The notes beneath the pieces were generated by a model. The model did not search any database and had not been told where the DNA came from. It worked only from the letters and a program-made list of their open reading frames with translations. This document shows positions 6,068 through 29,323 of a DNA stretch of 64,000 bases, in pieces; within the stretch, counting starts at the first letter, position 1, and the number at the start of each line of letters is the position of its first letter. This DNA comes from an uncultured Planctomycetales bacterium. Lineage in GTDB: Bacteria; Omnitrophota; Gorgyraeia; Zapsychrales; GWA2-47-8. The stretch lies in contig CAZCLW010000002.1 of assembly GCA_964499685.1 (NCBI GenBank), positions 93,013 through 157,012 on the forward strand, given 5' to 3'. The translations under genes and the position numbers were made by a program.

Positions 6068-6080
6068 AAAAGGAAACTCC

Positions 6081-7337: not shown

Positions 7338-7382
7338 AAAAAGGGCATACTTAATGAGTATGTGAAGCAAAAGGAGCAAGCA

Positions 7383-10606: not shown

Positions 10607-10678
10607 CTTTAATCCTATTTTCATCTTCCCTTAATCCTCCCTTTGGTAAAGTGAATTCAGCACGCTAAAGGAGGGGGT

Positions 10679-11101: not shown

Positions 11102-11319
11102 CCTGTTAACGGGATTTTAACGTTCTTTTAATCAGGATTATTGTATAAAGATATTGGCTCTTTGTGAGGGTCTGGAAGCCTTATTGCCGGGATCTGATTT
11201 TCATACAAAAAGGATTTTGGAAAACCTGCAGAGGAAACTCTGTTAGGTTTTCCGCTAGATCCGGTAATAAGGCTTCATTAACAGATTTTCGCAAAGAGCC
11301 TTTTTTATGGAGGTCCGCC

Positions 11320-13876: not shown

Positions 13877-13977
13877 AATGCGCTCCTTTCTTTAACACGC
13901 AAAATATTGTAAGCGTATTGTAAAAGAACGCATGTTAAGGCGGGATTAAAAAAGGATTAAAAAGGGAATAGAATATA

Positions 13978-14031
13978 TAGGGACAGACTCTATTTATTTA
14001 AGAGTCTGTCCCTAAACAGGGTCTGTCCCTA
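13978..14031. repeat. Cluster of three copies of the palindromic motif TAGGGACAGnCCC (one pair forms an 11-bp stem hairpin)
   Basis: TAGGGACAGAC ... GTCTGTCCCTA ... GGGTCTGTCCCTA. It lies in the intergenic gap downstream of the TorF-like gene and upstream of the yciE-like gene. Confidence 0.7.
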
Positions 14032-14035
14032 TGTA

Positions 14036-14833
14036 TTAAAACGCAAAGGCGAGCGACATCCCGCCGTAGAATCTGTCCTCCTGAACGTTGATCCCGCCGT
14101 TGGCGGTGTCATCTTCCAGATCATCCCACGGTGTGCTGTAGGCGATCTTGGGGGTCAAGGTCACGTTCTCCGAAAGCGGCACGGTCAACGAGGCGGTCGT
14201 CAAAGAATACCCGCCCTCGCCGATGATGAAGGCGTCGTTGTTCAGGCCGATCTCCTGGCCCAGATTGAGCGCGATACCGTATTTTTCGTTTAAGGTGAAG
14301 CTGTGGCTGATGCCGAACATGTAATATTGCCCGTCGGCGCCGCCATGGGCTTCATCGCCGTAATCGAGATACGCGGTAAAATACGGCGAAAGAAGCGTAG
14401 CGAGGCTCAGGCCCACGTAGAATTCCTCCGTGTGCGTCCCGGCCTCGGGAAAAGCGTACCACGTATGGCCGAACTTTACGTCCACCACTTCGAGTGCTTC
14501 ATTAATAAAACCAAGATCGTGATGATAGCCAACCCAGCCGTCAACCTCATCAGAGGCCAGGGCGTCCTTGGACTCGAGGTCCCAGCTCCCCCAAAACCCG
14601 CCCTGAAAACCTCCGGACGTCACGGTCAGGGCCGGCTGCATCACGTTGTCTTTATCGAGGGTAAACCCGCGCCAGACGTATTTGTCGTAGTAATCGATCG
14701 AAGCGGTCACTTCCAGATCGACGCCTTTTTCTTTTAAAAGATCGCCGAACAGGGTTTCCGCGGCGGCGGGCCGGGTGAGGCACAGGACCAGCAGTATTCC
14801 GAGCCACATTGAGGTTAGATTTTTGCGTTGCAT
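14036..14833 (-). CDS. TorF-family putative porin (outer-membrane beta-barrel)
   Basis: Signal peptide. The SIDYYDKYVWRGFTL...GGFQGGFWGSWDL motif is typical of the TIGR02001/TorF family. Alternating amphipathic strands and a C-terminal ...SLAFAF ending in Phe. The internal ATG has a perfect GGAGGAACA RBS. Confidence 0.7.
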   Translation of the reverse strand: MQRKNLTSMWLGILLVLCLTRPAAAETLFGDLLKEKGVDLEVTASIDYYDKYVWRGFTLDKDNVMQPALTVTSGGFQGGFWGSWDLESKDALASDEVDGWVGYHHDLGFINEALEVVDVKFGHTWYAFPEAGTHTEEFYVGLSLATLLSPYFTAYLDYGDEAHGGADGQYYMFGISHSFTLNEKYGIALNLGQEIGLNNDAFIIGEGGYSLTTASLTVPLSENVTLTPKIAYSTPWDDLEDDTANGGINVQEDRFYGGMSLAFAF

Positions 14834-15101
14834 TGTTCCTCCTTCTGTTGGTGTGGTTTGACGGTTTGGCTTTTTCTGCTCTCCCAACAGAAAAAGCCCC
14901 TGAGGGAAATTCCCCCAAGGGCTTCAACGCCTTTTTCCGAAAAAGACCCCGTGTCTTTTTTACGGAAAATAAAAAAATCCGGCTCGCGTTTATTCACGGC
15001 CGGACTTCAGTGTCTTTTTAAGCGCATGCGAGCTTCTTTGCTCAAATGCAACGCTGACAATATAAAACACCTCGGTGTATGTGTCAAGGGTTTTGTTTTT
15101 G

Positions 15102-15335
15102 TCACGCGCGGTCCTGCACCAGATGCGCGCCGGACTCGGTGGCGCAATGCGCGCAGCAGAAGATCTGGCCGTTCTCTTCGACGCCGTGGCCGATGATCTT
15201 GCACGCACAGTGCGGACACGAGGGAGCGAGCGCGTGGATCGCGCATTCAAAACAATCGAACGTTTCTTCTTTATCGCCCATCACGACCGTGAAGGTCTTG
15301 TCATATTCATTCCCGCAGGTTTTGCATTTAGCCAT
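15102..15335 (-). CDS. Small cysteine/histidine-rich metal-binding protein
   Basis: 77 aa with CxxCG, CFEC, CPHCAC and CCAHC clusters (12 Cys plus several His). GGAGGTG RBS. Confidence 0.5.
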   Translation of the reverse strand: MAKCKTCGNEYDKTFTVVMGDKEETFDCFECAIHALAPSCPHCACKIIGHGVEENGQIFCCAHCATESGAHLVQDRA

Positions 15336-15410
15336 AGTACACCTCCATTATTTTTTGTTATAATCGCATTTTAAGGAAAGCAAGATGAAGGGAGAATTAA
15401 AAGAAAATTA

Positions 15411-16076
15411 ATGGGCAGATACGCCTGGCTTAGTATTTTCTCCATCCTTATGACCGCATCGATTGGACATACGGCCCAACCCTTACGCTATCTGGCGCTG
15501 GGCGATTCCTACACCGCCGGCCACGGCCTAAAACCGGCTGAGAGCTGGCCCTACCAATTGGCCGCGCATGTGCACGCCAAGGGCCTCGCGATTGCCGAAC
15601 CCGTCGTGATCGCCGTGTCCGGCTGGACAACGGCCAATCTTTTATCCGCCCTTGAAAGGAAGAGCTTCGAGCAGCCCTTTGACCTGGTCACGCTGATGAT
15701 CGGCACCAATGACCAGTTTCAGGGCCGCGATCCCATGGTCTTTGCCAAGGATTTAAATACACTGATCCAGAAAGCGGTTACCCTGGCCGGCAATGACCCT
15801 GCGAAGGTCCTGGTCATCACGCTTCCCGACTGGAGCGTGACACCCTATGCCGTCGATCTAAACCGCGCCCTCATCGCCCGGGATATAGACGGGTTTAACG
15901 GGATCGTATCCGCCCTGGCCGCCAAAAATCAGGCCGCTTATTTCGACATCGCGCCCGCCTCCCGCGGACAAACACAAGAGGATATGTTCATCGACGACGG
16001 CCTGCACCCGTCGGCAAAAGGCTATGCCGGCTGGGCAAAAGCCATTTTGCCCGAAGTCCTGCGCCTGCTCAAATGA
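15411..16076 (+). CDS. SGNH/GDSL family hydrolase (secreted esterase/lipase-like)
   Basis: Signal peptide. GDSYTAG block I (catalytic Ser), GTND block III, DGLHP block V. Confidence 0.8.
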   Translation: MGRYAWLSIFSILMTASIGHTAQPLRYLALGDSYTAGHGLKPAESWPYQLAAHVHAKGLAIAEPVVIAVSGWTTANLLSALERKSFEQPFDLVTLMIGTNDQFQGRDPMVFAKDLNTLIQKAVTLAGNDPAKVLVITLPDWSVTPYAVDLNRALIARDIDGFNGIVSALAAKNQAAYFDIAPASRGQTQEDMFIDDGLHPSAKGYAGWAKAILPEVLRLLK

Positions 16077-17860
16077 AAAAGACCGCCTTAGCGACAATTT
16101 TTTTATTCCTCTGCGGATGCGCGGCGCCTGTCGCGCAGGAGCGCACCGCCTCCATTATCTTGAATGATGTTCATTCGCGGCTGAATCCCACGCGCGTGGC
16201 TGAAGTCCATTATCCTAAATCAACCAAAGACATCGTCGCCATCGTCAAAGACGCCAAGCGCCGTCAAAAGCCGGTGAGCATTTCCGGCGGACGGCACGCC
16301 ATGGGCGGACAGCAATTCGGCGAGGACACGGTCCACATCAGCATGAAGGAGATGAACGATGTCCTTTCCTTTAATAAGGAGACCGGCATTGTGCGCGTGG
16401 AGGCCGGTATCGGCTGGCCCAAACTGCTCGACTATCTCGCCAAAGAACAGGAAGGGCAGTGGCCGCAATGGGCGATCGCTCAGAAGCAGACCGGCGCGGA
16501 TGAGCTCTCGCTGGGCGGCGCGCTTTCGGCCAACGCGCACGGCCGGGGCGTGCGTTACAGGCCCATTATCCAGGATGTGGAGCGCTTCACGCTGGTTGAC
16601 AGCGATGGGAAAGTTTTACAGGTAAGCCGCACGGAGAATGCGGAATTGTTCTCTCTGGCGATCGGCGGTTATGGACTTTTCGGCGTTATCGCGACCGTGG
16701 ACTTACGGCTCCAGCCGCGTCAGAAACTGCAAAGAGATGTTGAGGTCATTTCGATCGAGGATCTCCCGGAAAAGACGAAGCAAAAATTGGCCGAAGGCTA
16801 TCTCTACGGCGATTTCCAGTACAAGACCGACGCGGCCGCGAGTGATTTCATGCAGAAAGGTGTTTTCACCGGCTACAAGCCCGTACCGCCCGAGACGCCT
16901 ATCCCTGAGGGGCAAAAGGTTTTGACAACCGACGAGTGGTATAAATTGATCCACCTCGCGCACGTGGACAAGTCCCGGGCCTTTGAGGTCTACAGTCAGC
17001 ATTATTTGAAGACCAACGGCCAGATCTATTGGTCCGATACCATGCAGCTGGGATTTTACGCGGACCAGTACGTGGAATATCTGGAGAAGGCCATGCCGGA
17101 TTATCCCCAGGGTTCGCTGATGATCACGGAAGTGTATGTGCCGCGGCCCAAACTGACTGAATTCATCTATAAAGTGATCGACGACGCACGGGCCCACAAT
17201 GTCAACATCATCTACGGCACCATGCGCTTGATCGAGAAAGATGATGAAAGTTTTCTGGCCTGGGCCAAACAAAATTATGCCTGCGTTATCTTTAATCTGC
17301 GCGTGGACGCGGGCGAGGAGGGATCGAAGAAAGCGCAGGAAGATTTTCAGCGGCTGATCGACCGGGCGTTGGAGTTTGATGGCTCCTATTTCCTGACCTA
17401 TCACCGCTGGGCGCGCAAAGACCAAGTGCTCAAAGCCTATCCGCAATTCCCTGAATTCCTGCGCTTAAAGTTAAAATACGATCCCGAAGAGCGTTTCCAG
17501 AGCGAGTGGTACCGGTATTACAAGAAGTTTATCGGAACAGGCCCCGCCGACCCATTTTTCCAAAAGCATGTTGAGCCGTGGCTTGACGATCCGGAGACCG
17601 AATCCATCTTTTTAGGCGCGGCGCTGGAAGACCCCCAGCCGCATCTTGAAGGCCCGTGGCCGCACTATGTTGTGGGCTTCCGGGTCGAAAAGCAATTTAA
17701 GGGCGCTCCGGAAGCGGAGATCGAGCTCCTGCTCGATGCGCCCCTTGATGAAAACTTTGTCGAGATCAACGAAGGCGGGACGTACCTTATCCGGAAGGAA
17801 CAGGGGAACTTTTTGAACGTCATCCCGGCGCCAAAGGACCAATCCCCGTCGGAAATTTAG
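16073..17860 (+). CDS. FAD-binding oxidoreductase (PCMH-type FAD_binding_4 domain, GULO/alditol-oxidase-like) lipoprotein
   Basis: Lipobox LFLCGC. The FAD-binding segment PKSTKDIVAIVKDAKRRQKPVSISGGRHAMGG is typical of the vanillyl-alcohol-oxidase superfamily. A long C-terminal extension is present. Confidence 0.7.
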   Translation: MKKTALATIFLFLCGCAAPVAQERTASIILNDVHSRLNPTRVAEVHYPKSTKDIVAIVKDAKRRQKPVSISGGRHAMGGQQFGEDTVHISMKEMNDVLSFNKETGIVRVEAGIGWPKLLDYLAKEQEGQWPQWAIAQKQTGADELSLGGALSANAHGRGVRYRPIIQDVERFTLVDSDGKVLQVSRTENAELFSLAIGGYGLFGVIATVDLRLQPRQKLQRDVEVISIEDLPEKTKQKLAEGYLYGDFQYKTDAAASDFMQKGVFTGYKPVPPETPIPEGQKVLTTDEWYKLIHLAHVDKSRAFEVYSQHYLKTNGQIYWSDTMQLGFYADQYVEYLEKAMPDYPQGSLMITEVYVPRPKLTEFIYKVIDDARAHNVNIIYGTMRLIEKDDESFLAWAKQNYACVIFNLRVDAGEEGSKKAQEDFQRLIDRALEFDGSYFLTYHRWARKDQVLKAYPQFPEFLRLKLKYDPEERFQSEWYRYYKKFIGTGPADPFFQKHVEPWLDDPETESIFLGAALEDPQPHLEGPWPHYVVGFRVEKQFKGAPEAEIELLLDAPLDENFVEINEGGTYLIRKEQGNFLNVIPAPKDQSPSEI

Positions 17861-17948
17861 ATTGACAAATTTTCCCTCGGGCGCTACAAGAGGAATTAGG
17901 GTACCATACCTATTTTGACGATATAAAAAGAATTCCTGGGGTTAAAAA

Positions 17949-18353
17949 ATGAGTAATTCGGATATTGAAGAAAGCATCAAACAATATTTACTCAATTTAA
18001 AGACGTTGTATGGTGAGATTAAATCTATTTGGCTGATCGGCTCAAGAGCGAACAACGCTGCAACTGATAATTCGGATTGGGATTTTCTGCTCTTCGGGAG
18101 TAAAAATGTTTTCAGGGCGTTGCAAAATGATCAATCATTTAAAAGAGAAAAAATAGATTTACTTGTCGTGGATGAGGATGGGGAATTTAAAGATCCATGG
18201 CAAAATAAAAACGGCGATCTCGCCTCCTGGCGTTGGAAAAAACAATCAGAAAATACAGCAACTTATCGTTCTACAAAATTTATACCGGATGAGCCAGAGG
18301 GCGATTTGGGTACTTTTGAAGAGAAATGGTTTAAAGCTATAAGGATTTTATAA
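17949..18353 (+). CDS. Minimal nucleotidyltransferase (Pol-beta-type NTase fold)
   Basis: hG[GS]...DxD signature IWLIGSRANNAATDNSDWDFLLFG plus a downstream acidic LLVVDED. 134 aa. The region is strongly AT-rich relative to its flanks. Confidence 0.6.
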   Translation: MSNSDIEESIKQYLLNLKTLYGEIKSIWLIGSRANNAATDNSDWDFLLFGSKNVFRALQNDQSFKREKIDLLVVDEDGEFKDPWQNKNGDLASWRWKKQSENTATYRSTKFIPDEPEGDLGTFEEKWFKAIRIL

Positions 18354-18389
18354 GGATAAGGCATGCGCAATTAACTGGAGAGTCTTGAT

Positions 18390-19343
18390 TTGGAATCTAA
18401 GAAAAGCATAGCGGCGCTTAATCGCGAATTACGCAATTTACCCGAATATGAATTGTACTTGTCGATTACAACCTTTGACATATCGCGGCACATATTTAAC
18501 AGAAATTATTATGAATTGTCTAAATTAATATCCTTTTTGGTAAATGACCCAAAAGCGGATCAATATATGATAGTAAAAAACCGTGATAAATTGGATATAT
18601 TATTAGATGAGATTATTCGCATGACGCATAATTTCGTAGCTTCCGCAATGTCTCTGGTTGATCATACAAGGATTTTCTATAAGAAATCATATGAAAAGAA
18701 TGACAGATTTCCTGATTATCAGGCAAAAATTGATGACACTTTTACGAATGATAATTTAGTACAGTTTGTTCATTGCCTGAGGCAATATTGCCAGCACTAT
18801 AGGTCTCCGAATATTTCTGTTGAGGAATCATGGAATCAGGGAGACCAACGCCCAAAGAGGTCAATAAAACTCTTAAAACGAGATTTAAATACATTTTCTG
18901 GGTGGAATTCTAAGGCAAAGAATTATTTGATGGGGGAGGATGAAAAAATTGACTTAATTTCTGTGATAGATATTTATAAGGATAAGATTTTAAATTTTCA
19001 TTCATGGCTCCGGAAAAGACAGGGAGAAATACATGCTGCTGAATTCAAAGTTTTAAGAGATAAGGAAAAAGAAGTTTTAGTTGCACAAATTGTTATGTTC
19101 TTAAATGGAGCTTTAAAGAATGATCGAATGCAATATTCAGGTGAAGATGAAATATTTTATGGCATATTTACATCTAAAGATTACGAAGAACTAGAAGCTT
19201 ATTCGTGGGATTCTCCAGCCAGATCAAAGCGAGCCATTGAGTTATTAAAACAACGTCTCGATGTACCCGAGGATGTCATCAGGAGAATCCGATTGTGGTA
19301 TGAGAAGAAAGCACAGAGAAGCGGCCTTGTAAACAAGAGATAA
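18390..19343 (+). CDS. Hypothetical alpha-helical protein, possible HEPN/Abi-like partner of the NTase
   Basis: 317 aa, AT-rich codon usage, apparent TTG start. Contains an R-x4-H motif (LRQYCQHYR) of the kind found in HEPN RNase domains. No other recognisable motifs. Confidence 0.35.
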   Translation: MESKKSIAALNRELRNLPEYELYLSITTFDISRHIFNRNYYELSKLISFLVNDPKADQYMIVKNRDKLDILLDEIIRMTHNFVASAMSLVDHTRIFYKKSYEKNDRFPDYQAKIDDTFTNDNLVQFVHCLRQYCQHYRSPNISVEESWNQGDQRPKRSIKLLKRDLNTFSGWNSKAKNYLMGEDEKIDLISVIDIYKDKILNFHSWLRKRQGEIHAAEFKVLRDKEKEVLVAQIVMFLNGALKNDRMQYSGEDEIFYGIFTSKDYEELEAYSWDSPARSKRAIELLKQRLDVPEDVIRRIRLWYEKKAQRSGLVNKR

Positions 19344-19453
19344 AGAACCAATGGACAAGGAAGCAATAGTTTTTTGGATAAAAAACTGTGAAAGAACTTA
19401 CGTGGATATGCAAGAGATGCGCGCATAACAATTAATCATGCACTGAAATAAGA

Positions 19454-20479
19454 TTGATTATTCCCATGTCTGCCCAATTCCTTACCAAATCCTCCTATTT
19501 TAAGCTCCTCCATTCCATCTGCTCCGAAATGTCTTCCGGTCTCGCCCGCGTCGAGAAGCTCCTTGAGCGCCAGAAGGTCGTGACTTATTGGGAGATCGGC
19601 AGACACATCAACCGCTACCTGGCAAAAAACGCGCCGGTGCGGGGCAAGATTGGGTCATTTTATGACCGGCTCTCCGGCGATATCAAGGTCAGCGCCAGGA
19701 CACTTCAGCATTGTGAGCAATTTTTCCGCTATTTTCCCCGGTTGCCCAAAGCGGACGGCCTAAGCTGGTCGCATTACCGTTTTCTTCTGGTCCTGCCGGA
19801 GGAGAAGGAACGCCTAAGCTGGATCAACCGTATCCGGCGGGCCAATATTTCGGTCAATGACCTGCGGCTCGAACTGCTTTCCAAGACCGGAAGTTTGGAA
19901 GAAGAGGAAGGGCAGCGGCTCGATGGACCGCGCCGCGGCGCATTGTACACCTATCGTTTGCGCCGTGCCGAAGGCCTGGAAGGGGTCGGGGTGCCGTGGT
20001 TCGTGGATTGCGGGTTTTCCTGCCGCATTGAGGCGCCTCTATCCCGGAGCGCTTTGGAACTCAAATATATCTACACTTCGGAAAAAACAAAAGAGGGCTA
20101 CCGGCTCAAGGTGACCGATACACCGGCGGATGCGATCTATACCTACAAGGCCAAGATGCGCCGGGTGATCGACGGTGATTCGCTGCTCGTCGACGTGGAC
20201 CTGGGCTTCGGCATCTGGACCGAACAGCGTCTGCGCCTGCGGCTGATCGATACGCCTGAGCTTGATACTCTGGCCGGACAAAAGACCAAACGCTGGCTGG
20301 AGAATGAATTGAAGGACTGCCCCTTTGTCATCGTCAAGACGTACAAGAGCGATAAATATGACCGGTATCTCGTTGATGTATTTTATGCGCCCGGTGAGGA
20401 AGACGCACAAGCGGTTGCCGATGAAGGAACGTATCTGAACGGCCGGTTGGTGGAGTTGAAACTGGCCAAGCTCTGGTAA
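19454..20479 (+). CDS. Fusion protein: DUF1016_N (YhcG N-terminal-like) domain plus staphylococcal-nuclease (SNase/thermonuclease) domain
   Basis: N-terminal KVVTYWEIGRHI...LSWSHYRFLL resembles the YhcG N-domain. C-terminal RVIDGDSLLVDV...LRLRLIDTPE...KYDRYLVDV...GTYLNGRLVELKLA matches the SNase catalytic core. Confidence 0.55.
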   Translation: MIIPMSAQFLTKSSYFKLLHSICSEMSSGLARVEKLLERQKVVTYWEIGRHINRYLAKNAPVRGKIGSFYDRLSGDIKVSARTLQHCEQFFRYFPRLPKADGLSWSHYRFLLVLPEEKERLSWINRIRRANISVNDLRLELLSKTGSLEEEEGQRLDGPRRGALYTYRLRRAEGLEGVGVPWFVDCGFSCRIEAPLSRSALELKYIYTSEKTKEGYRLKVTDTPADAIYTYKAKMRRVIDGDSLLVDVDLGFGIWTEQRLRLRLIDTPELDTLAGQKTKRWLENELKDCPFVIVKTYKSDKYDRYLVDVFYAPGEEDAQAVADEGTYLNGRLVELKLAKLW

Positions 20480-20595
20480 TAACGGACTTGCCTGAAGCCG
20501 GAAGCCGTGTAATACTTGTTTCTGCCCTCACAGTTATAACCTTCCTTATCCGATTTCCCCTAAAGCATAAACTAAACAATCCGCAAAGGGGAACT

Positions 20596-21009
20596 ATGTC
20601 TGTTGTAATTCCGCAGGAAGTCATCGAACAGAAAATCTATTTAATCCGAGGTAAGAAAGTGATGCTGGACAAAGATTTAGCCCAATTATACGGGGTACCA
20701 ACTAAGCGCCTCAAGGAACAGGTCCGCCGCAATCCCAGACGATTTCCGAATGATTTTATGTTTGAGCTGACATGGGAAGAAGCGGAGACGCTGGCTTCAA
20801 GGTCGCATTTTGCGACCTTGAAAAAAGGTAAAAATATTAAATATCTGCCCTATGTTTTTACCGAGCAAGGGATTGCCATGTTAGCCCGGAAACTTGAAGA
20901 GCTGGAAAGGAAATACGATGCACAGTTTAAAGTCGTTTTTGACGCGATCCGGCAAATTGTAGCACCGCCTGATCCGCCTAAGCGTAAGATAGGTTTTCAT
21001 GCTTATTAA
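20596..21009 (+). CDS. ORF6N domain DNA-binding protein (phage/mobile-element-associated family)
   Basis: LIRGKKVMLDKDLAQLYGVPTKRLKEQVRRNPRRFPNDFMFELTWEE is the characteristic ORF6N/KilA-like N-terminal domain. Confidence 0.6.
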   Translation: MSVVIPQEVIEQKIYLIRGKKVMLDKDLAQLYGVPTKRLKEQVRRNPRRFPNDFMFELTWEEAETLASRSHFATLKKGKNIKYLPYVFTEQGIAMLARKLEELERKYDAQFKVVFDAIRQIVAPPDPPKRKIGFHAY

Positions 21010-21071
21010 TCTTTTTTTAACCTTCCCTTAATCTCCCGCGGCGCACAATGGCGTCGGAAAGGGAGGTGGAT

Positions 21072-21422
21072 ATGAAAAAGGTATATTTGAACATGATGGT
21101 GGCGATGATGGTGAGTTTGGTTTGGCCGGTTGCGGGTTTCAGCCAAGGGACGGTGCAGGATGCGTCTCCTGATGTTCTCGAGGCCCCGCCGTCGGCGACA
21201 CAGGACCTGTTGATCGGAGAAGGGCAGTCTATCGAAGGCACGGTGACGTCGCTGGACCCCGCGGGCAACACGGTCAGCATCGCGGAAGACGCGACCGGGG
21301 AGGTCCGCACCTTTTCGGTCAGCGATGAAGAGGTCTTGAACGATATTGAGACCGGCAATCAGGTCAATGTGACGCTTATGGAAGATAATCCCGGCCGGGT
21401 CGAAAGTATTCAGAAAATATAA
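21072..21422 (+). CDS. Small secreted OB-fold protein, CusF-like / DUF5666-like (paralog 2 of 3)
   Basis: Signal peptide. Same G-x-V-x-x-LD...TV.I..D.TGE.....V.......I..G..V.V pattern as ORF 10679. RBS GGGAGGTGG. Confidence 0.45.
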   Translation: MKKVYLNMMVAMMVSLVWPVAGFSQGTVQDASPDVLEAPPSATQDLLIGEGQSIEGTVTSLDPAGNTVSIAEDATGEVRTFSVSDEEVLNDIETGNQVNVTLMEDNPGRVESIQKI

Positions 21423-21471
21423 GGGGACAGTCCCTATTTAGGGACAGACCCTCAAAACGGGTCAGTCCCTA
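21423..21471. repeat. Cluster of three copies of the same palindromic motif (GGGGACAGTCCCTA, TAGGGACAGACCC, GGGTCAGTCCCTA)
   Basis: Lies between convergent genes 21072..21422 (+) and 21452..23404 (-). The third copy falls inside the 3-prime end of the minus-strand gene. Confidence 0.7.
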
Positions 21472-23404
21472 AATTTTTTTCTCCGAAGCGCGCGGCGTGA
21501 TAGTCCTCCAGGAATGATTCAACCCTGTTCAGCGACTCTGCCGGAACGTCAGGGCGTTTTTTAAGACGTTCGACCACATCTTCGTCGGTTTCCGCCGCTC
21601 CACGTGTCTCACCGAATGACCGCTTCAGATATTGCTCATAACGCCGGTAAACGGCCTGCAGATGCGCCGGAGTCTTGAAGGCGGGTTTTTTCTGTTTCTG
21701 CCGGCCCAGCAGGCGTTTTATCCCGAGAATGATCGCTTTGGCGTTCATGACCAGCATGACCGCCATAAGCGTCAGAAGCACATTCATCTTCAATCTGTCT
21801 TTGTCCATGTTCTGCACATGCGCCGAAAAACGTAAAAAGCCCAGCCACATTTGTTCCGCCAATCTGTCCAGATCGATGAGTTTCTTTCGGCCTGAGCCCG
21901 TCGGAAGCACTCCCGCCGGGGTCGGGTCCAGCCCGGTCCAGGTTATGATCCTTTCTCCTGTCCCTGAATGTTCCGCCAGCAAAAGGACCTCCACCCACGC
22001 GTGCGCATCCCGGACGCGCGCCAAAAACCTGCTTTGCCGGCGGTCGGTCATCTCCTGGGTATAAAAGCCGGTCACGACGCGGGCCGGGATATTTTCCGCG
22101 CGCAAAAGCAGCGCCATGGCGGTCGCGAAATACGTGCAGTACGCCGGGCGCCGTTCCCTCATCATGGCGATCAAACTCTTATTATCCGCCCGGAAATCCG
22201 TCTCGAGCGAATACGCGAACTCATTCTGGAAAAAATTCTTGATCAGAAGGGCCTTTTGGGCCGGATCGGTCTCGTTCCCGACGATGGAAGAGGAAATGGC
22301 TTTGAGATCGGCCGCCATGTCGGGCGGGACCTTGATGTGCCGGAAAAGTTCCCGGCGTGTCAGCCGCGCCGGGATCAGTTTGTCACCGGCGAGGAAGGTG
22401 AGGATGCGGCTGCGCCTTTCTTCGCGGTCATACACGATCCAGTTCTCGTCCATTTCATACGCGCCGGGGCCGCGCACCTCCGTAAGGCCGGGCGGGGAAG
22501 GCACAATGTCTTTCAGGGAAGTGAACATCGTCAACTCGATCTCTTTGTCGCTGCCGGTGAGGCCGCCTCCGACGGGAATATATTCCAAGTCTTCCGGTTC
22601 CTTCCAGACACCGTTATTGAAGTCCCGGAAGACCTGTGTCCGTAGATACACTTCCGCGGTTCCCGGATATTTCACCTCCAGGACCGGACGCCGGTCAAAG
22701 GCGCTGTTTCCCGGAGAGATCAGATTAAGCTGTGGGCTGATGTTCAAAAAGTGCGTGTAGTGCCGCGGCATGATGTAATTGCGCATGACGTTCATAAAGG
22801 CCTCATCGAGCGCCCGGACCGCGGTCGAAATGTTGAAGAACGACACGATCATGAGCGCGATCAGCAAAAACGAAAAGAACGTGAAATTACGGTAATAACG
22901 GAAGATATGTTTACGTGTAGGCGGCCGGTGGAAGGTGTTGAGGATGACGATGACGACCGATAAAAGCGTGAAGATCGAGAAATCCAGGAACAGCGGGCGC
23001 GAATACGGGACGTTGATCGAGGAGGTGACGGTGAGCCAGGCCATGAAGATGATCAGAAAGAAGTTGTGGCGGTTGAAAGGTTTAAGCCACAACAGGACGG
23101 ACGCGATGATGGCCGCCGACTGGATGGCGGCGGTCAGCTCCGGAAAAGGCGACATGGCTTCTTCAGGCATAGGTACTGAAGAGCGGTAAAAATATCCCGC
23201 GACCAGCGACAGCAGGATGACCGCAAAAAGCGGCAGGCGCTCGAAGAGTTTAAAGCGTTTTTCCGTCGAGCCCAGTCTGAGAAAAGATGAAAGGACCACG
23301 ATGCTCCCCGCGATCAAAGGGAGTGCAGCCTCCTTCTGGCAGCTGGCATAGATGTTCCAGGAAAAAAAGAGGAGAACGGCGCTGTGGATGTAGCGTTTAA
23401 CCAT
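21452..23404 (-). CDS. Transglutaminase-like domain membrane protein (DUF3488/TGase family)
   Basis: N-terminal multi-TM region. Catalytic Cys-His-Asp core ...RRPAYCTYFATAMALLLRAENIPARVVTGF...RDAHAWVEV. The start overlaps the upstream DUF58 gene stop (ATGGTTAA). Confidence 0.75.
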   Translation of the reverse strand: MVKRYIHSAVLLFFSWNIYASCQKEAALPLIAGSIVVLSSFLRLGSTEKRFKLFERLPLFAVILLSLVAGYFYRSSVPMPEEAMSPFPELTAAIQSAAIIASVLLWLKPFNRHNFFLIIFMAWLTVTSSINVPYSRPLFLDFSIFTLLSVVIVILNTFHRPPTRKHIFRYYRNFTFFSFLLIALMIVSFFNISTAVRALDEAFMNVMRNYIMPRHYTHFLNISPQLNLISPGNSAFDRRPVLEVKYPGTAEVYLRTQVFRDFNNGVWKEPEDLEYIPVGGGLTGSDKEIELTMFTSLKDIVPSPPGLTEVRGPGAYEMDENWIVYDREERRSRILTFLAGDKLIPARLTRRELFRHIKVPPDMAADLKAISSSIVGNETDPAQKALLIKNFFQNEFAYSLETDFRADNKSLIAMMRERRPAYCTYFATAMALLLRAENIPARVVTGFYTQEMTDRRQSRFLARVRDAHAWVEVLLLAEHSGTGERIITWTGLDPTPAGVLPTGSGRKKLIDLDRLAEQMWLGFLRFSAHVQNMDKDRLKMNVLLTLMAVMLVMNAKAIILGIKRLLGRQKQKKPAFKTPAHLQAVYRRYEQYLKRSFGETRGAAETDEDVVERLKKRPDVPAESLNRVESFLEDYHAARFGEKNLGTDPF

Positions 23405-24653: not shown

Positions 24654-25600
24654 CAGCGCGGGACTTTAATGTTCGAAACTATTTCTTGCGTGATATCGGA
24701 AGCGGATGTGCCGCCGTATTGCGAACGCGAATCCAGGATGAGACGGTGGGACAGTACGGGCGCGGCCAGATTCTTTACATCCTCCGGGATTGTATAATCG
24801 CGGCCCTCCAGCAGGGCGCGGGCACGGACGATTCTCGCGTACAGCAGGCTGCCGCGGGTTGAAACACCCAGGCGGACCTTGGGATGTTCACGGGTCGCGT
24901 GCACGATCTCGAGCAGATATTGGCTTACCGAAGGCTCCAATTTTACCGCGTCCACGCAGCTTCGAAGCGCCAGTATCTCCTCCAGCGAAATGATCGGCCT
25001 GATCGACTCCACCGGATCGACGCTGGTACGGTTGATGGCCAGCGATTCTTCCACTTCGCGGGACGGATAGCCCAGGTCCAACTGGAGCATAAAGCGGTCG
25101 AGCTGGGCTTCGGGCAGAGGATAGGTCCCGTGGTATTCGATGGGGTTTTCGGTCGCGAGCACGATAAAAGGCGAAGGCAGCGCATAGGTGACCCCGTCGC
25201 TGGTGACATGCTCGTCGCTCATGGCCTCCAGAAGTGCGGACTGGGTGCGGGCCGAGGCGCGGTTTATTTCATCGGCTAAAATGATATTGGCGAAGATCGG
25301 GCCTTTTTTGAAAATGAATTGGCCCGAGGATTGCTCGTAGATATTGACGCCGGTGATGTCGGTCGGAAGCAGGTCGGGCGTGAACTGGATACGGGTGAAT
25401 TTTCCGGCGATCGTCTTGGCGAGGCTGCGGGCAAGTGTTGTTTTACCCACGCCGGGGATGTCTTCGATGAGGACGTGGCCGCCGGCGGTCAGCGCCAGGA
25501 CCAGCAGTTCGATCTTGTCTTCTTTACCCTGGATCACGCGGCCTAAGTTGCCGATCACGGCGCGCATTTGGGTGCTTATTTTATCGAGGGGAAGATTCAT
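24653..25600 (-). CDS. MoxR-family AAA+ ATPase
   Basis: Walker A GHVLIEDIPGVGKTTLARSLA, Walker B IILADEINRASARTQSALLEAM, and a typical MoxR C-terminal. The ATG at 25600 is preferred over the TTG at 25621. Confidence 0.9.
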   Translation of the reverse strand: MNLPLDKISTQMRAVIGNLGRVIQGKEDKIELLVLALTAGGHVLIEDIPGVGKTTLARSLAKTIAGKFTRIQFTPDLLPTDITGVNIYEQSSGQFIFKKGPIFANIILADEINRASARTQSALLEAMSDEHVTSDGVTYALPSPFIVLATENPIEYHGTYPLPEAQLDRFMLQLDLGYPSREVEESLAINRTSVDPVESIRPIISLEEILALRSCVDAVKLEPSVSQYLLEIVHATREHPKVRLGVSTRGSLLYARIVRARALLEGRDYTIPEDVKNLAAPVLSHRLILDSRSQYGGTSASDITQEIVSNIKVPR

Positions 25601-25651
25601 TAGATTGTCAAAATAGCACAAAAAAAGGAGACAGGCTACTTTTTTAATAAA

Positions 25652-25666
25652 TAGGGCCTGTTCCTA
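25652..25666. repeat. Single copy of the palindromic motif (TAGGGCCTGTTCCTA) in the divergent moxR / small-gene promoter region
   Basis: Direct inspection. Confidence 0.5.
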
Positions 25667-25687
25667 TTTATATGCTAATCTATTTTC

Positions 25688-25882
25688 ATGGCCGAACAAA
25701 TCTGTCCCCATTGCAAACAATCCACCTATGACGATGAGGCGCTCTTGTGTCATTTTTGCGGGGAAAGCCTGGGCCGCACCAGCCGCGGCGCTTTAGGCAA
25801 AATGACCGGCGCGTCGGCCAAATGGCTCTTCGCCGCGGTCGCCGTTATCCTCATCATCAGTTTCCTGCTGCTGTTTTGGTAA
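25688..25882 (+). CDS. Small zinc-ribbon membrane protein
   Basis: CPHC...CHFCG double CxxC followed by a C-terminal TM helix. 64 aa. Confidence 0.4.
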   Translation: MAEQICPHCKQSTYDDEALLCHFCGESLGRTSRGALGKMTGASAKWLFAAVAVILIISFLLLFW

Positions 25883-26005
25883 AAGCCATTCTGTTTCCCT
25901 GATGGTCTCTTTCTGTGATACGATAGAATTATTCAGTTGTTTAACCGGGACGCGTGAGGCCGCTTTTACGACCGTACGGGTTTCCTTCACGAAGGGAAGG
26001 TGAGT

Positions 26006-26497
26006 ATGAGCGGTTCTATCATTGTGGCCGGGCAAGCCGGCAACGAAATGACGCGCATGGTGACAGGATTGACCAACTACGGGTATACAGTTTTTCCCGC
26101 CGAGAACGGAGAGGCGGCCGCGGGGCTGGTCAAGGAGAAGAAAGAGCTGGTCGCCATTATCATCGGTTCGGCCCTGCAGGGTTTGAGCGCGAGCGATCTT
26201 TGCAAACAGATCAAGCAGATCGGCCGGCTGGACAAGGTACCGGTCTTTATCCTTGAGGACAAAGGGTTTTTACAGACCACGTACGCGGACCTGGGGATCA
26301 CGCAATTTTTTAAGGAGCCGTTCAGCACGACGGCGGTCGTGCGCGAGATCAAGTCGCTCAGCAGTGATGCCGGGCCTCTCGTCGGTAAACAAAACACAGG
26401 GAAACAACTGATAGGCGTCTGGATCGCTCTGGCGATAGCCTTGTGTATCCTGACTTTTTTTATATTCATCCCCCTGATGGCCGGCGGGTCCAAGTAA
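26006..26497 (+). CDS. Receiver-like (pseudo-receiver) domain protein with C-terminal membrane anchor
   Basis: CheY-like alpha/beta fold pattern (IVAG...AIIIGS...VFILED...). It lacks a clear phospho-acceptor Asp-Asp pair. A terminal TM helix is present. RBS GGAAGGTGAG. Confidence 0.35.
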   Translation: MSGSIIVAGQAGNEMTRMVTGLTNYGYTVFPAENGEAAAGLVKEKKELVAIIIGSALQGLSASDLCKQIKQIGRLDKVPVFILEDKGFLQTTYADLGITQFFKEPFSTTAVVREIKSLSSDAGPLVGKQNTGKQLIGVWIALAIALCILTFFIFIPLMAGGSK

Positions 26498-26694
26498 AGT
26501 CTTTATAAAGCTTTTACTTGACATTTCGGCGCCAGGCCTCATACTCATAGTGTAGTAAATAAAGGGAGAAGGAATCTTTAGACCGCAAGGCAAGAATTCG
26601 CCTGGCGGTTTTTTTGTTATTCGGTACTCCTGTCGTTGATGCTGTCGATCATCGAATTATTTACTTCAGTGTCATCGAGAGGAGGTAATTCACT

Positions 26695-26895
26695 ATGGCA
26701 ACAGGAAAAGTAAAATGGTTTAACGACCAAAAAGGTTACGGTTTTATTTCCCCGGAGTCAGGCAAGGATGTTTTTGTCCATCACAGTGCAATTCAGGGTG
26801 ATGGTTACAAATCATTAGCCGAAGGTCAGGCGGTCGAGTTCGATATCACCGACGGTCCTAAAGGCGAACAAGCCCAAAACGTGAGGAAATTATAG
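26695..26895 (+). CDS. cspA: Cold-shock protein CspA family
   Basis: [33 protein letters not shown] carries the RNP1/RNP2 motifs. 66 aa. A long 5-prime UTR of about 200 nt and a strong terminator are present. Confidence 0.9.
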
Positions 26896-26904
26896 CCTCG
26901 AAAA

Positions 26905-26934
26905 GGCCCGGTCTCCAAAAGACCGGGCCTTTTT
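26905..26934 (+). terminator. Rho-independent terminator after cspA
   Basis: GGCCCGGTC-loop-GACCGGGCC hairpin followed by TTTTT. Confidence 0.75.
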
Positions 26935-26958
26935 AATTCACGAGAAAACAGGAGTCCA

Positions 26959-27180
26959 ATGTCAAAAGAAGAAGCTATCGAAGTACAAGGGGTCGTCCTT
27001 CAGGCCCTGTCGAATGCGAAGTTCCGTATCGAGCTAGAGCACGGCCATTCCATCATCGCCTACCCTGCCGGAAAAATGAGCAGGCATTTCATTAAGATCT
27101 TACCCGGCGACAAGGTCACCGTCGCCATGTCGCCCTATGACCTCACCAAAGGGCGCATCACCTTCAGGCATAAAACCTAA
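26959..27180 (+). CDS. infA: Translation initiation factor IF-1
   Basis: [63 protein letters not shown] is an almost canonical IF-1 S1-like domain. Confidence 0.9.
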
Positions 27181-27194
27181 AAGGAGGGCGTCCC

Positions 27195-27449
27195 ATGGGA
27201 CCCCAAAATGAAGAACGTATCCGGACCAAAGGGTCGATGGACCTTTTGCATGTTGAAAAGCTGCTCACCCGTTCCAACGGGAGTTTATATCTTTTGTTGC
27301 GTCTGGCCATGAAGCGTGCCCAGGAGCTGGCCGACGGGAAGCCGTGCCTGATCAAAGACCCGATGTCGGAAAAAACGGCTACCATCGCGCTCCAGGAGAT
27401 ACTGCAGGGCAAGATCGCCATCAAAGAAGGAAACGGCCGAAAGTCTTAG
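27195..27449 (+). CDS. rpoZ: DNA-directed RNA polymerase subunit omega
   Basis: LYLLLRLAMKRAQELADGKPCLIKDPMSEKTATIALQEILQGKI matches the RpoZ core. RBS AAGGAGGG. An alternative ATG start lies at 27237. Confidence 0.6.
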   Translation: MGPQNEERIRTKGSMDLLHVEKLLTRSNGSLYLLLRLAMKRAQELADGKPCLIKDPMSEKTATIALQEILQGKIAIKEGNGRKS

Positions 27450-27835
27450 AGCTCGGTCGGGCCTTCGGGCTGCGTCACGGCTTCGTTGACCTCATCGGTC
27501 GTCTCGTTGGCCGAAGCATCTGCATCCGCATCGATCAATTCCACATAGTTGGCGTCCCAATAGCCCTGCTCCTTGTTGGCGCGCGCATCCAGTTTGATTT
27601 CCTGGCCGCTGCGCAGTTCATCGAGGGAGGCGAGGTTTTTGAGCTTCGCGTTCTCCAGGATCTTGACATCAAGCTCCTTGGAATAGGCCTCTTGGAACTG
27701 TGCGCCGCTTCGTTCGATCGTCACCATCCTTTCGCCCAAGTCCACTTCCTTGACCACTCCCGACATCCATGCCGCGTAAGAGGGCGTCTGCATCAAAAAC
27801 AGGCTCATAAAAATGAATAAAAGTGTCTTTTTCAT
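27446..27835 (-). CDS. Small secreted OB-fold protein, CusF-like / DUF5666-like (paralog 3 of 3)
   Basis: Signal peptide MKKTLLFIFMSLFLMQTPSYA. SGVVKEVDLGERMVTIE...LRSGQEIKLDA repeats the pattern of ORFs 10679 and 21072. RBS AGGAGGTAAAA. Its stop overlaps the rpoZ stop (convergent). Confidence 0.45.
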   Translation of the reverse strand: MKKTLLFIFMSLFLMQTPSYAAWMSGVVKEVDLGERMVTIERSGAQFQEAYSKELDVKILENAKLKNLASLDELRSGQEIKLDARANKEQGYWDANYVELIDADADASANETTDEVNEAVTQPEGPTEL

Positions 27836-28004
27836 TTTTACCTCCTTGCCCGCCTCAGGCGGGCTTTTTATGGTTCGTCTTGATGCTAGCAAGCGCTTCA
27901 TGAAAAGAGGATTAAAAGAAAATTAAACACAGGCTGTAATGTTAATTTTATTTTAATTCTGTCTTCATGTTGCTACCCTTAAAATTTCAGATAAAGGATA
28001 AACA

Positions 28005-29288
28005 ATGAAGCAATTACAGACGATCAATATACTTTTGCCCGAGAACTTAAAGCCGGTCGGTTCGCTGCGGGACTATCTGGACACGGGCGGTTTTGACGGT
28101 TTTAAGAAGGCCAAGAGTTTAAGCGCTGTCCAGCTCATTGAAGAGGTCAAGCGGTCGGGTTTGCGCGGCCGGGGCGGGGCGGGTTTCCCCACCGGTATCA
28201 AATGGGAGACCGTCTACCGTGACCCGTGCCCTACCAAATATGTCGTCTGCAACGCCGCTGAAGGCGAGCCCGGCACGTATAAAGACCGTTACCTTATCCG
28301 GATGAACCCATATCAACTGATCGAAGGGATCCTGATCGCGTGCGGGGTGGTGGAGCCGCCCAAGGCCATTATCGGCATCAAGAAAAAATTCGTGCGTGAG
28401 ATCGAATCTTTGCGCCGGGCGATACGGGAAATTGAAGATGCCGGCATTATGCCCAAAGATTTTATTGAGCTTTTTCTTGGGCCGGATGAGTATCTTTTTG
28501 GGGAAGAAAAAGCCCTTTTGGAGGCGATCGACGGACGCGGCGCTTTGCCGCGTATCCTGCCCCCGTATGTCTTAGGTATCTATGAAAGTCCGGGCTTTCC
28601 GAACCCCACGATCGTCAACAATGTCGAGACCTTCAGTCATCTGCCGCATATTTTTGCCAACGGCGCGCACTGGTATTATTCGACCATAGGCGTGGAAGGT
28701 TCATCCGGGACCATGATCTTTACGCTGACCGGCGATGTCAAAAAGCCGGGCCTTTACGAGCTTCCTCTGGGCACGCCGTTGCGGGAACTTTTATACGATA
28801 TCGGCGGTGGGCCGCGCAACGGGCATTCGTTCAAGGCCGTTTTTTCAGGCGCGGCCAATCCGGTCATTACCCCGGAGATGTTCGATACGCCGATGGATTT
28901 TGTCGCTCTGCGCAAGGCCGGTTCAGGCCTGGGTTCTGCCGGATTCATCGTCTTTGACGACCGTACCTGCATGGTCAAAGCCGCTGCGCTTTTTTCCGGA
29001 TTTTTGGCCGCCGGGTCCTGCGGGCAGTGCGTTCCCTGTATCACCGGCACGAACAAAATAACCCAGCTTTTGGAAAAGATCGACCGGGGGAAGGGAGAAG
29101 GGGACGATATTGACGCGGTCCTGCGCGAGGCCGCCCGCACACCGGAACAGAGCCGCTGTTATCTGGCGACCCAGGAGTCCGTCTTGGTCACCAGTGTGGT
29201 CAGGAAATTCCGGCAGGAATTTGAACAGCATCTGGGCGCGAAATGCCCGTTGCCGCGCACGCTTGTCCTTCCCCGTCTCGAAATTTAA
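28005..29288 (+). CDS. NuoF-family flavoprotein (NADH-binding 51-kDa subunit-like, FMN plus 4Fe-4S)
   Basis: FMN/NADH motif RGRGGAGFPTGIKWE, YVVCNAAEGEPGTYKDRYL, and the SLBB region. 4Fe-4S motif SCGQCVPC. It is an orphan: no NuoE or other Nuo genes lie adjacent. Confidence 0.8.
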   Translation: MKQLQTINILLPENLKPVGSLRDYLDTGGFDGFKKAKSLSAVQLIEEVKRSGLRGRGGAGFPTGIKWETVYRDPCPTKYVVCNAAEGEPGTYKDRYLIRMNPYQLIEGILIACGVVEPPKAIIGIKKKFVREIESLRRAIREIEDAGIMPKDFIELFLGPDEYLFGEEKALLEAIDGRGALPRILPPYVLGIYESPGFPNPTIVNNVETFSHLPHIFANGAHWYYSTIGVEGSSGTMIFTLTGDVKKPGLYELPLGTPLRELLYDIGGGPRNGHSFKAVFSGAANPVITPEMFDTPMDFVALRKAGSGLGSAGFIVFDDRTCMVKAAALFSGFLAAGSCGQCVPCITGTNKITQLLEKIDRGKGEGDDIDAVLREAARTPEQSRCYLATQESVLVTSVVRKFRQEFEQHLGAKCPLPRTLVLPRLEI

Positions 29289-29294
29289 ATTAAA

Positions 29295-29308
29295 TAGGGT
29301 CTGTCCCT
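29295..29308. repeat. Single copy of the palindromic motif (TAGGGTCTGTCCCT) between the NuoF-like and UbiA-like genes
   Basis: Direct inspection. Confidence 0.5.
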
Positions 29309-29323
29309 TGTTATTTCTGTATA

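Follow-up and report, generated by a model that had tools for sequence, protein, structure and literature searches.

A dispersed palindromic repeat in an uncultured Omnitrophota genome and its probable origin from a Y1 transposase element

A stretch of 64,000 nucleotides from the genome of an uncultured Omnitrophota bacterium (assembly GCA_964499685.1, contig CAZCLW010000002.1, positions 93,013 to 157,012; this whole stretch is hereafter termed the window) contains a short palindromic sequence that recurs at four loci, raising the question of what kind of element it represents. An initial annotation had offered three options: a dispersed element similar to repetitive extragenic palindromic (REP) sequences, a family of terminators, or the operator of a dimeric regulator. 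Our analysis favors the first of these, as the same sequence was found to flank a Y1 transposase gene of the REP-associated type in related genomes and to be dispersed among unrelated genes. The eight copies in the window are most probably REP-like non-autonomous repeats, the unit of which is the terminal inverted repeat of a Y1 transposase element of the kind termed a TIRtron. The family was previously uncatalogued and belongs to a known sort of bacterial repeat.

The repeat unit and its copies in the window

The conserved unit is a 15-bp quasi-palindrome, TAGGG-ACAGA-CCCTA, in which two 5-bp dyad arms surround an asymmetric 5-nt center, and it is usually set within A/T-rich flanks (AAATAGGG...CCCTATTT). 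When the window was searched for TAGGGACAGACCCTA, allowing up to three mismatches, exactly eight copies at four loci were found and none elsewhere, in agreement with the original count of eight copies with three-copy clusters at two of the loci (Table 1). This number exceeds random frequency, with a mean of 0.72 copies in shuffled sequences and eight or more in 0 of 100 shuffles. Likewise, the 11-mer TAGGGACAGAC has four exact matches in the window where about 0.03 are expected by calculation, and a repeat search showed that the sequence flanking the units is also common to the copies (family D2). These results refute the idea that a G+C-rich palindrome recurs by chance within A/T-rich intergenic sequence, an explanation to which we assign a negligible probability, even though the short core GGGACNGTCCC alone, at up to one mismatch, is not significantly enriched (five observed versus 1.9 expected). 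For the same reason, the core GGGAC-N-GTCCC by which the motif had been described is better replaced by the longer unit.

By a crude open reading frame (ORF) map, non-coding sequence makes up about 7% of the window, and all eight copies are either non-coding or located at gene ends; the calculated chance of four independent loci all falling in such positions is roughly 1e-4 to 1e-5. The confinement to intergenic and gene-end positions proposed at the outset therefore holds for every copy in the wider sense, while unit 6 is not strictly intergenic, as it encodes the end of tgpA. Locus 1 is situated about 100 nt before a DUF892 (YciE-like) gene, locus 2 between convergent genes, locus 3 between the divergent starts of moxR (25621, - strand) and a 64-amino-acid (aa) zinc-ribbon ORF (25688, + strand), and locus 4 within the 35-nt gap that separates a nuoF-like gene (stop at 29288) from a UbiA-like gene (start at 29324). 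Loci 1 and 2 each contain a pair of units in inverted, head-to-head orientation, which we refer to as doublets. Complementarity of the motif to rRNA was considered as well, and we know of nothing convincing in this regard.

The repeat in other genomes and its link to a Y1 transposase

To examine the occurrence of doublets elsewhere, one genome per GTDB species (596 Gb) was scanned for the hairpin pattern TAGGGACAGAC-N(0-30)-GTCWGTCCCTA, and more than 118 matching loci were found. Among the 117 matches listed, the unseeded inner bases read [AC]C[CT]A in 65, compared to 1.8 expected (1/64 per match, calculated), and 59 of these 65 carry an upstream A-run. As the unseeded bases are shared, each arm at these loci is an AAAA-TAGGG-ACAGA-CC(C/T)A-TTTT unit, as in the window. 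The metagenome-assembled genomes (MAGs) among the matches listed are labeled Burkholderiales/Betaproteobacteria, Omnitrophota, Elusimicrobia, Planctomycetota, Nitrospirae, Chloroflexi, Clostridia and others, a list of phyla that MAG taxonomy and binning may inflate. Several genomes contain at least three to nine matches each, with extra solo units in the same loci. The hairpin sites lie mostly between convergent or tandem genes and rarely between divergent ones, and the TAG of the motif is often a stop codon. All-against-all clustering of the ORFs at the 118 hairpin loci revealed no common neighbor family (at most 10 loci shared one), indicating that the element is dispersed among unrelated genes.

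Across the family, the spacing between the arms of a doublet ranges from 0 to 30 nt, and a dif/Xer-like 11+6+11 site was dropped as a candidate because of this variation. A DNA uptake sequence was also dropped, since identity across phyla would be implausible for it and the link to a transposase explains the pattern. The 34 short-spacer matches, which come from Prevotella, Caulobacter, actinobacterial MAGs and others, may in part be due to chance and in part belong to a separate, canonical GTAG-type REP family with the same core. A short-loop subfamily of the form GTAGGGACAGACC-T(T/A/G/C)A(A)-GGTCTGTCCCTAC with a GTAG foot was observed at loci L114, L115, L131, L136, L172, L178, L179, L180, L184 and L206, under seven labels: Nitrospirae, Brocadiales, Chloroflexi, Dehalococcoidales, Betaproteobacteria, Burkholderiales and Gemmatimonadota.

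Inspection of loci with several doublets revealed the transposase. In two Burkholderiales MAGs (L196 and L170), a gene of about 220 aa lies between two doublets, and in a Phycisphaerae MAG (L125) a 226-aa gene lies between a doublet and a solo unit. All three proteins match the Pfam family Y1_Tnp (PF01797) with E-values of 2e-9 to 1e-10; their best NCBIfam match is REP_Tyr_transpos, at 59–63 bits and under the equivalog cut-off of 80. A metagenome scan with an alignment of transposases of this type yielded 80 loci. The layout of these metagenome loci is constant, with a AATAGGGACAG[TA]C[AC]CCTATTT unit followed by a TTGACA box upstream and an inverted unit, ATAGG..CTGTCCCTATT, downstream, just past the stop codon. 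In 28 loci the upstream flank was long enough and the start clear; of these, 16 have a + unit (up to two mismatches) 53–71 nt before the ATG and none has a - unit. A - unit lies no more than 20 nt past the stop codon in 12 of the 25 loci with enough downstream flank. By calculation, chance would give about 0.01 units in each orientation per 100-nt window of flank. More distant homologs have the related cores GGGGACGCTACCC, CCGGGGACAGACGGGACG and TTAGGGACACTCCC.

The homologs of these enzymes number roughly 6,000–7,700. Those of the transposase of a further locus with the exact 11-mer in its flanks (L283) include proteins named Omnitrophica/Omnitrophota, Elusimicrobia and Auribacterota. In three Omnitrophota MAGs (MHFD01000031, JADHWH010000047 and JAQURQ010000008), which belong to the same phylum as the window, the transposase gene is flanked by the exact 11-mer. 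The window itself is assigned to this phylum by the homologs of its TgpA, to which one database protein is 100% identical. The left repeat of the three MAGs, aaaaTAGGGACAGACACCTAtttt, precedes the ATG by 57 nt, with a TTGACA-17-TATAAT promoter after it, and the right repeat, ATAGGTGTCTGTCCCTAtttt, is located 2–10 nt past the stop codon. Overall, the left unit of a full element stands about 56 nt ahead of the start codon. The Omnitrophota enzyme is 41% identical to the Phycisphaerae enzyme and 32% identical to the Burkholderiales enzyme, and the 11-mer is identical in all three groups. A phmmer comparison of the Omnitrophota enzyme to PDB sequences gave no relevant match. Taken together, these findings establish that the repeats in the window share sequence identity with repeats that flank Y1 transposase genes.

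In their +/- polarity, the two arms of doublet 1 match the repeats that bracket the transposase gene of related genomes, so that the doublet looks like a TIRtron from which the gene has been deleted. In the mechanism we propose, the solo units and head-to-head doublets of the window would represent such gene-deleted TIRtrons, comparable to REP doublets forming hairpins (REPINs) or to miniature inverted-repeat transposable elements (MITEs), and these derivatives would have been scattered in non-coding DNA, mainly just past stop codons, by a cognate transposase, the gene of which is assumed to lie outside the window in this Omnitrophota genome. Where the DNA is single-stranded, as at a replication fork, the unit would form a hairpin whose loop is ACAGA and whose TAGGG/CCCTA stem of 5 bp is lengthened by A·T pairs. 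By analogy to its enzyme family, the transposase would recognize this hairpin and then cleave and rejoin the unit without generating target-site duplications, and it may do so at present. Y1/HUH cleavage and rejoining of single-stranded DNA beside hairpins have been shown for IS608 and for the E. coli TnpA-REP (cited in PMC6006769).

Consistent with this mechanism, no direct target-site duplications were observed at any of the eight copies. This also bears on whether the repeats could instead be a MITE of a DDE-type insertion sequence (IS; e.g. IS630 or IS5-like) with a TA target duplication and GGGACAGAC... as its terminal inverted repeat. Although a doublet resembles a short, variable core enclosed by two inverted terminal repeats, and the motif both starts and ends with TA, the outer flanks of the copies are reverse-complementary or unrelated rather than direct repeats, and the Y1/HUH transposase gene is the one gene observed between inverted copies, which never enclosed a DDE transposase. 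Plasmid and phage collections, moreover, contained no BLAST match to the consensus doublet, and we consider a DDE origin highly improbable. A scan of viral contigs for TAGGGACAGACCCT gave 91 single, chance-like matches and was uninformative, and a full-text literature search for the sequence strings returned primers and guide RNAs only.

Several observations weigh against a TIRtron origin of the repeats in the window. No Y1 transposase gene or fragment of one is present in its 64 kb, and its 15-nt units (TAGGGACAGACCCTA or ...CTCTA) are one base off the Omnitrophota TIRtron repeat TAGGGACAGACACCTA in length. Almost no extra dispersed copies occur in the 11–18 kb around the three Omnitrophota TIRtrons, implying that proliferation is lineage-specific. 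No REP-like sequences have been reported for TnpAY1 subclass 2.1 (Quentin et al., 2018; PMC6006769), the subclass to which we assign the enzyme below. Finally, background matches may contribute to the number of hairpins counted across phyla, as an extrapolation from the density of perfect 11-nt inverted repeats (74–366 per Mb) predicts approximately 10–50 perfect hairpins per 596 Gb for a random 11-mer. The raw hairpin count is therefore not decisive, and we place the weight on the shared unseeded flanks and on the linkage to the transposase.

The loci that carry the transposase show some further features. In the Omnitrophota TIRtrons, the left repeat abuts the promoter, the -10 box of which ends about 6 nt before the ATG (L294, 9944-10003; L295, 702-760; L297, 7018-7076). 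From this position, the transposase mRNA would have little or no leader, and an enzyme that binds its own left end could autoregulate its expression. One of the Burkholderiales MAGs (L170) contains a second Y1 paralog between different but related repeats, TCGGGGTCAGACC/AAAATCGGGGTCAGACC (2560-2600 and 3314-3340), so that two enzyme-repeat pairs are present in a single MAG; AAAATCGGGGTCAGACC also occurs beside TAGGGACAGAC doublets at L099 and L176. The outer 8–17 nt of the repeat are frequently re-duplicated in tandem (CCCTATTATCCCCTATTATCC, GTCCCTAATATATGTCCCTAATATAT) either just past the transposase gene, as in the downstream flanks of L222, L225, L229, L232, L250 and L267, or in arrays, as at L093 (1339-1400; four copies with a 16-nt period), and units 2 and 3 of the window also form a short tandem re-duplication. 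Such tandem copies may be the footprint of repeated cleavage and rejoining at the outer border.

Gene ends, hairpins and other features of the window

We next turn to the copies at locus 2, one of which extends into a protein-coding gene. TgpA of the window ends ...ARFGEK-NLGTDPF*, whereas its homologs end ...ARFGEK-EDVRLEEMR* or similarly, and the seven divergent codons and the stop codon (21452-21475, - strand) are encoded by unit 6 and its A-run. At orthologous moxR-DUF58-tgpA loci (L210-L213, L299 and L300; 44–60% TgpA identity), no unit was found after tgpA or elsewhere in the contigs. Since the tail of TgpA is encoded by the repeat and the relatives lack the repeat, the original 3' end of tgpA has been replaced by the element. 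As judged from this comparison, the copies in the window are insertions and not conserved sites, and the tgpA case illustrates that such repeats can alter protein C-termini. Repeat-encoded tails similar to NLGTDPF (IGTDPIF and others) were also observed in ORFs of other loci.

The same comparison speaks to the suggestion that the copies are operator sites of a dimeric transcription factor with the half-site TAGGG, which would regulate the adjacent genes. While the dyad symmetry (TAGGG-N5-CCCTA) and the copy in the divergent moxR start region would suit an operator, the absence of the motif from the orthologous tgpA loci argues that it is not a conserved one. In addition, seven of the eight copies lie at gene 3' ends or between tandem genes, the genes adjoining the copies are functionally unrelated, the variable arm spacing of doublets is unfit for a single dimer site, and one copy is inserted in the 3' end of a coding region. 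An operator function for the repeats is thus very unlikely. A CsoR-type operator in particular was dropped, as the arrangement of its G and C tracts is reversed.

Both doublets are predicted to fold into hairpins far more stable than those of shuffled sequence, with stems longer than the 11 bp originally assigned (Table 1). Doublet 1 folds with -33.6 kcal/mol as RNA in an 86-nt context (z -6.7) and with -17.3 kcal/mol as DNA (z -6.9). The corresponding values for doublet 2 are -29.9 (+ strand) and -33.4 kcal/mol (- strand) as RNA (z -5.4) and -15.7 kcal/mol as DNA (z -5.6). Folding is weak for the solo units of loci 3 and 4, at -5 to -8 kcal/mol as RNA (-8.5 kcal/mol for unit 7, with z -4.1 as DNA). 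A stem-loop followed by a U-tract, the feature expected of a terminator, is present on the + strand of locus 2, where seven T (21474-21480) lie directly 3' of doublet 2, and is not present at loci 1, 3 and 4. A simple consensus terminator scan of the window flagged none of the four loci, and a search of the window and eight related loci against Rfam, judged by gathering score and E-value, returned only sub-threshold generic hairpins (miRNA precursors and a plastid 3' untranslated region (UTR)).

Could the repeats then be a family of intrinsic, possibly bidirectional, terminators whose stems are alike by descent or convergence and have no link to a mobile element? The strong hairpin followed by seven T at locus 2 is in keeping with this idea, as are the many members elsewhere that have upstream A-tracts and downstream T-tracts and are found a few nt from the stop codons of convergent or tandem genes. 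Termination does not, however, explain why inverted copies bracket a transposase gene in several phyla, why the copy at 25652 is located between divergent starts, or why one copy replaced the coding 3' end of tgpA; nor do the weakly folding solo units and the outcome of the terminator scan support it. We therefore consider a family of terminators unlikely, and within the TIRtron-derived origin that we prefer, a terminator role fits as at most a secondary effect. As such, it is plausible that doublets act as terminators or mRNA stabilizers, given the succession of A-tract, hairpin and T-tract after stop codons, and doublet 2 is a possible bidirectional terminator for the convergent cusF-like and tgpA genes; its insertion also rewrote the last codons of tgpA. 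Elsewhere in the window, a strong, canonical terminator-like hairpin with 15 pairs and a T-run is located just upstream of the porin gene (14893-14925, - strand). Its sequence is unrelated to the repeat family, indicating that ordinary terminators are used in this genome too.

Table 1. Positions in the window of the repeat units, hairpin doublets, adjoining genes and a second recurrent motif
Feature	Position	Strand	Remarks
Unit 1, TAGGGACAGACTCTA	13978-13992	+	Left arm of doublet 1; exact 11-mer, one mismatch to the 15-mer consensus
Unit 2, TAGGGACAGACTCTT on - strand	14000-14014	-	Right arm of doublet 1; exact 11-mer
Unit 3, TAGGGACAGACCCTG	14017-14031	-	Direct repeat of unit 2, 17-nt period
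Unit 4, variant AGGGGACAGTCCCTA	21422-21436	+	First base is the last base of the CusF-like gene stop codon
Unit 5, TAGGGACAGACCCTC	21439-21453	+	Left arm of doublet 2; overlaps the tgpA stop codon (21452-21454)
Unit 6, TAGGGACTGACCCGT	21457-21471	-	Right arm of doublet 2; - strand encodes the TgpA end (N)LGTDPF
Unit 7, degenerate solo, TAGGAACAGGCCCTA (with flanks, AAATAGGGCCTGTTCCTATTTA)	25652-25666	-	
Unit 8, solo, AAGGGACAGACCCTA	29295-29309	-	
Hairpin doublet 1 (REPIN/MITE-like)	13978-14014		Perfect 14-bp stem, 9-nt loop
Hairpin doublet 2	21437-21473 (with T-run to 21480)		10+5-bp stem with one mismatch, 7-nt loop
Gcw_chp/TorF-like porin gene	14036-14887	-	Stop codon 4 nt from unit 3
CusF-like gene	21048-21422	+	Convergent with tgpA; locus 2 lies between them
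A/T-rich motif copies	13934-13960, 15385-15411, 27900-27926; 10609-10636, 11106-11133, 21006-21033, 27942-27969		Families D3, D8

Other features of the window were observed along the way. A second, A/T-rich motif, GGATTAAAAGAAAATTAA (TTAATC...TTAATC on the other strand), recurs just upstream of several start codons, and two 69-nt upstream regions (15343-15411 and 27942-28010; family I1) are 74% complementary to one another; the A/T-rich motif may be a shared promoter or 5'-UTR element. A low-GC island (17900-21050; GC content of 0.41 versus about 0.52) ends beside repeat locus 2. From their translations, its ORFs comprise a small nucleotidyltransferase-like protein, two proteins of unknown function and an ORF6N/KilA-N-like protein, and an ORF6N gene also directly follows tgpA in the relative at L210; the island looks like a horizontally acquired or defense-type islet. 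A sub-threshold match to the Rfam cspA thermoregulator (26586-26934, + strand; 57.6 bits versus a gathering score of 78, E-value 1.6e-12), located upstream of or over a small ORF (26695-26895), is probably the 5' UTR of a cold-shock protein. Lastly, five tandem 30-nt coding repeats (TGATGCCCGAGGATGACATCCATAAGGATT-like, family D1) at 41500-41661 give rise to a 10-residue protein repeat within an ORF.

Comparison with known systems

The transposases linked to the repeat are 217–228 aa in length and contain the motifs NHVH; LWE, LWQ or LFQ; and YIELNP, YVERNP or YIERNP. TnpAY1 subclass 2.1 is characterized by the HuH motif NHVH, W[EQ]/FQ, a YIELNP-like Y motif and a length of about 238 aa (Table 1 of Quentin et al., 2018; PMC6006769). 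Based on these signature motifs, rather than on phylogeny, the enzyme can be placed provisionally in subclass 2.1, which corresponds to group 1 of the REP-associated tyrosine transposases (RAYTs) and to the tyrosine transposases associated with terminal inverted repeats (TIRYTs). RAYT group 1 is the largest and most widely distributed RAYT group, with some plasmid carriage and with flanking 16-mers that are moderately repeated (Bertels et al., 2017; PMC5581495). Many of the inverted repeats that flank TIRYT genes, and thereby form TIRtron loci, share the sequence GGGGWSAS, and in some genomes TIRYT repeats constitute families whose members occur singly, as dimers or in clusters (Di Nocera et al., 2013; PMC3733652). 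This core is matched at 8/8 positions by unit 4 (GGGGACAG) and at 7/8 by the main form (AGGGACAG), and TGGGGACAGAC variants occur in related loci.

With this assignment, a previously unexplained intergenic motif of an uncultured phylum can be attributed to a particular enzyme family and mechanism, and it need therefore not be annotated as a regulatory site. Of the RAYT groups, group 1 has the least characterized DNA partners, and here its terminal repeat, the fixed distance of this repeat to the start codon, a built-in promoter and dispersed doublets are all visible. As the core is identical between enzymes that are only 32–41% identical, it offers a defined substrate for testing DNA recognition by domesticated Y1 transposases, and in MAGs the repeat can serve to follow both horizontal transfer and spread within a genome. 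We regard the observations as of moderate interest, both for the near-invariant core across distant phyla and for REPIN-like doublets in a subclass reported to be without REPs. A more far-reaching proposal, which we advance tentatively and would not yet favor, is that one large, horizontally spreading group-1 RAYT/TIRYT clade, with a near-invariant core (TAGGGACAG) in at least half a dozen phyla, makes REPIN-like doublets despite the reported lack of REPs in subclass 2.1, that hosts use these doublets as compact bidirectional terminators, and that the doublets can rewrite the 3' ends of genes. If true, this would amount to a REPIN system of pan-bacterial extent whose DNA code is fixed and biochemically testable.

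Among known systems, the IS200/IS605 family (TnpA Y1, subclass 1.1) shares with the elements described here the HUH/Y1 domain, ends that are recognized as single-stranded DNA hairpins, and the lack of both terminal inverted-repeat chemistry and target duplication. IS200/IS605 elements, however, are multicopy and have non-identical subterminal hairpins. Here, by contrast, a single unit in inverted orientation makes up both ends, and the small repeats rather than the gene, which seems to be present once, are what proliferates.

REPs, bacterial interspersed mosaic elements (BIMEs) and REPINs, together with their TnpA-REP enzymes (RAYT groups 2 and 3; Enterobacteria and Pseudomonas), also resemble the elements described here. 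In both cases, short, imperfect extragenic palindromes form long hairpins as inverted doublets, are clustered in alternating or direct orientation, flank a single-copy Y1 gene (the REPtron) and are free of target duplications. Secondary roles as terminators or mRNA stabilizers are known for REPs. Unlike canonical REPs, the copies in the window lack a GT[AG]G foot, the equivalent positions being ATAG, TTAG and CAAG, and a GTAG foot occurred only among the short-loop members from other phyla. The unit is also A/T-flanked, with a G/C stem of only 5 bp, and its enzyme comes from a different RAYT group and scores below the cut-off of the NCBIfam REP_Tyr_transpos model.

With TIRtrons and their TIRYTs, the system has in common a Y1/HUH gene of about 225–240 aa bracketed by inverted GGGGWSAS-type repeats, single, dimeric or clustered copies of these repeats elsewhere, and a wide, patchy taxonomic spread that is consistent with horizontal transfer. 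Published TIRtrons come from cultured Proteobacteria, Acidobacteria and similar groups, whereas the clade described here is found in Omnitrophota, Elusimicrobia, Auribacterota, Planctomycetota and uncultured Burkholderiales, with an 11-mer that stays identical while its enzymes diverge. It also departs from subclass 2.1 as published in that perfect REPIN-like hairpin doublets are common. Given the missing GT[AG]G foot, we file the repeat under the TIRtron/TIRYT kind, REP/REPIN-like in its working but distinct from canonical GTAG REPs.

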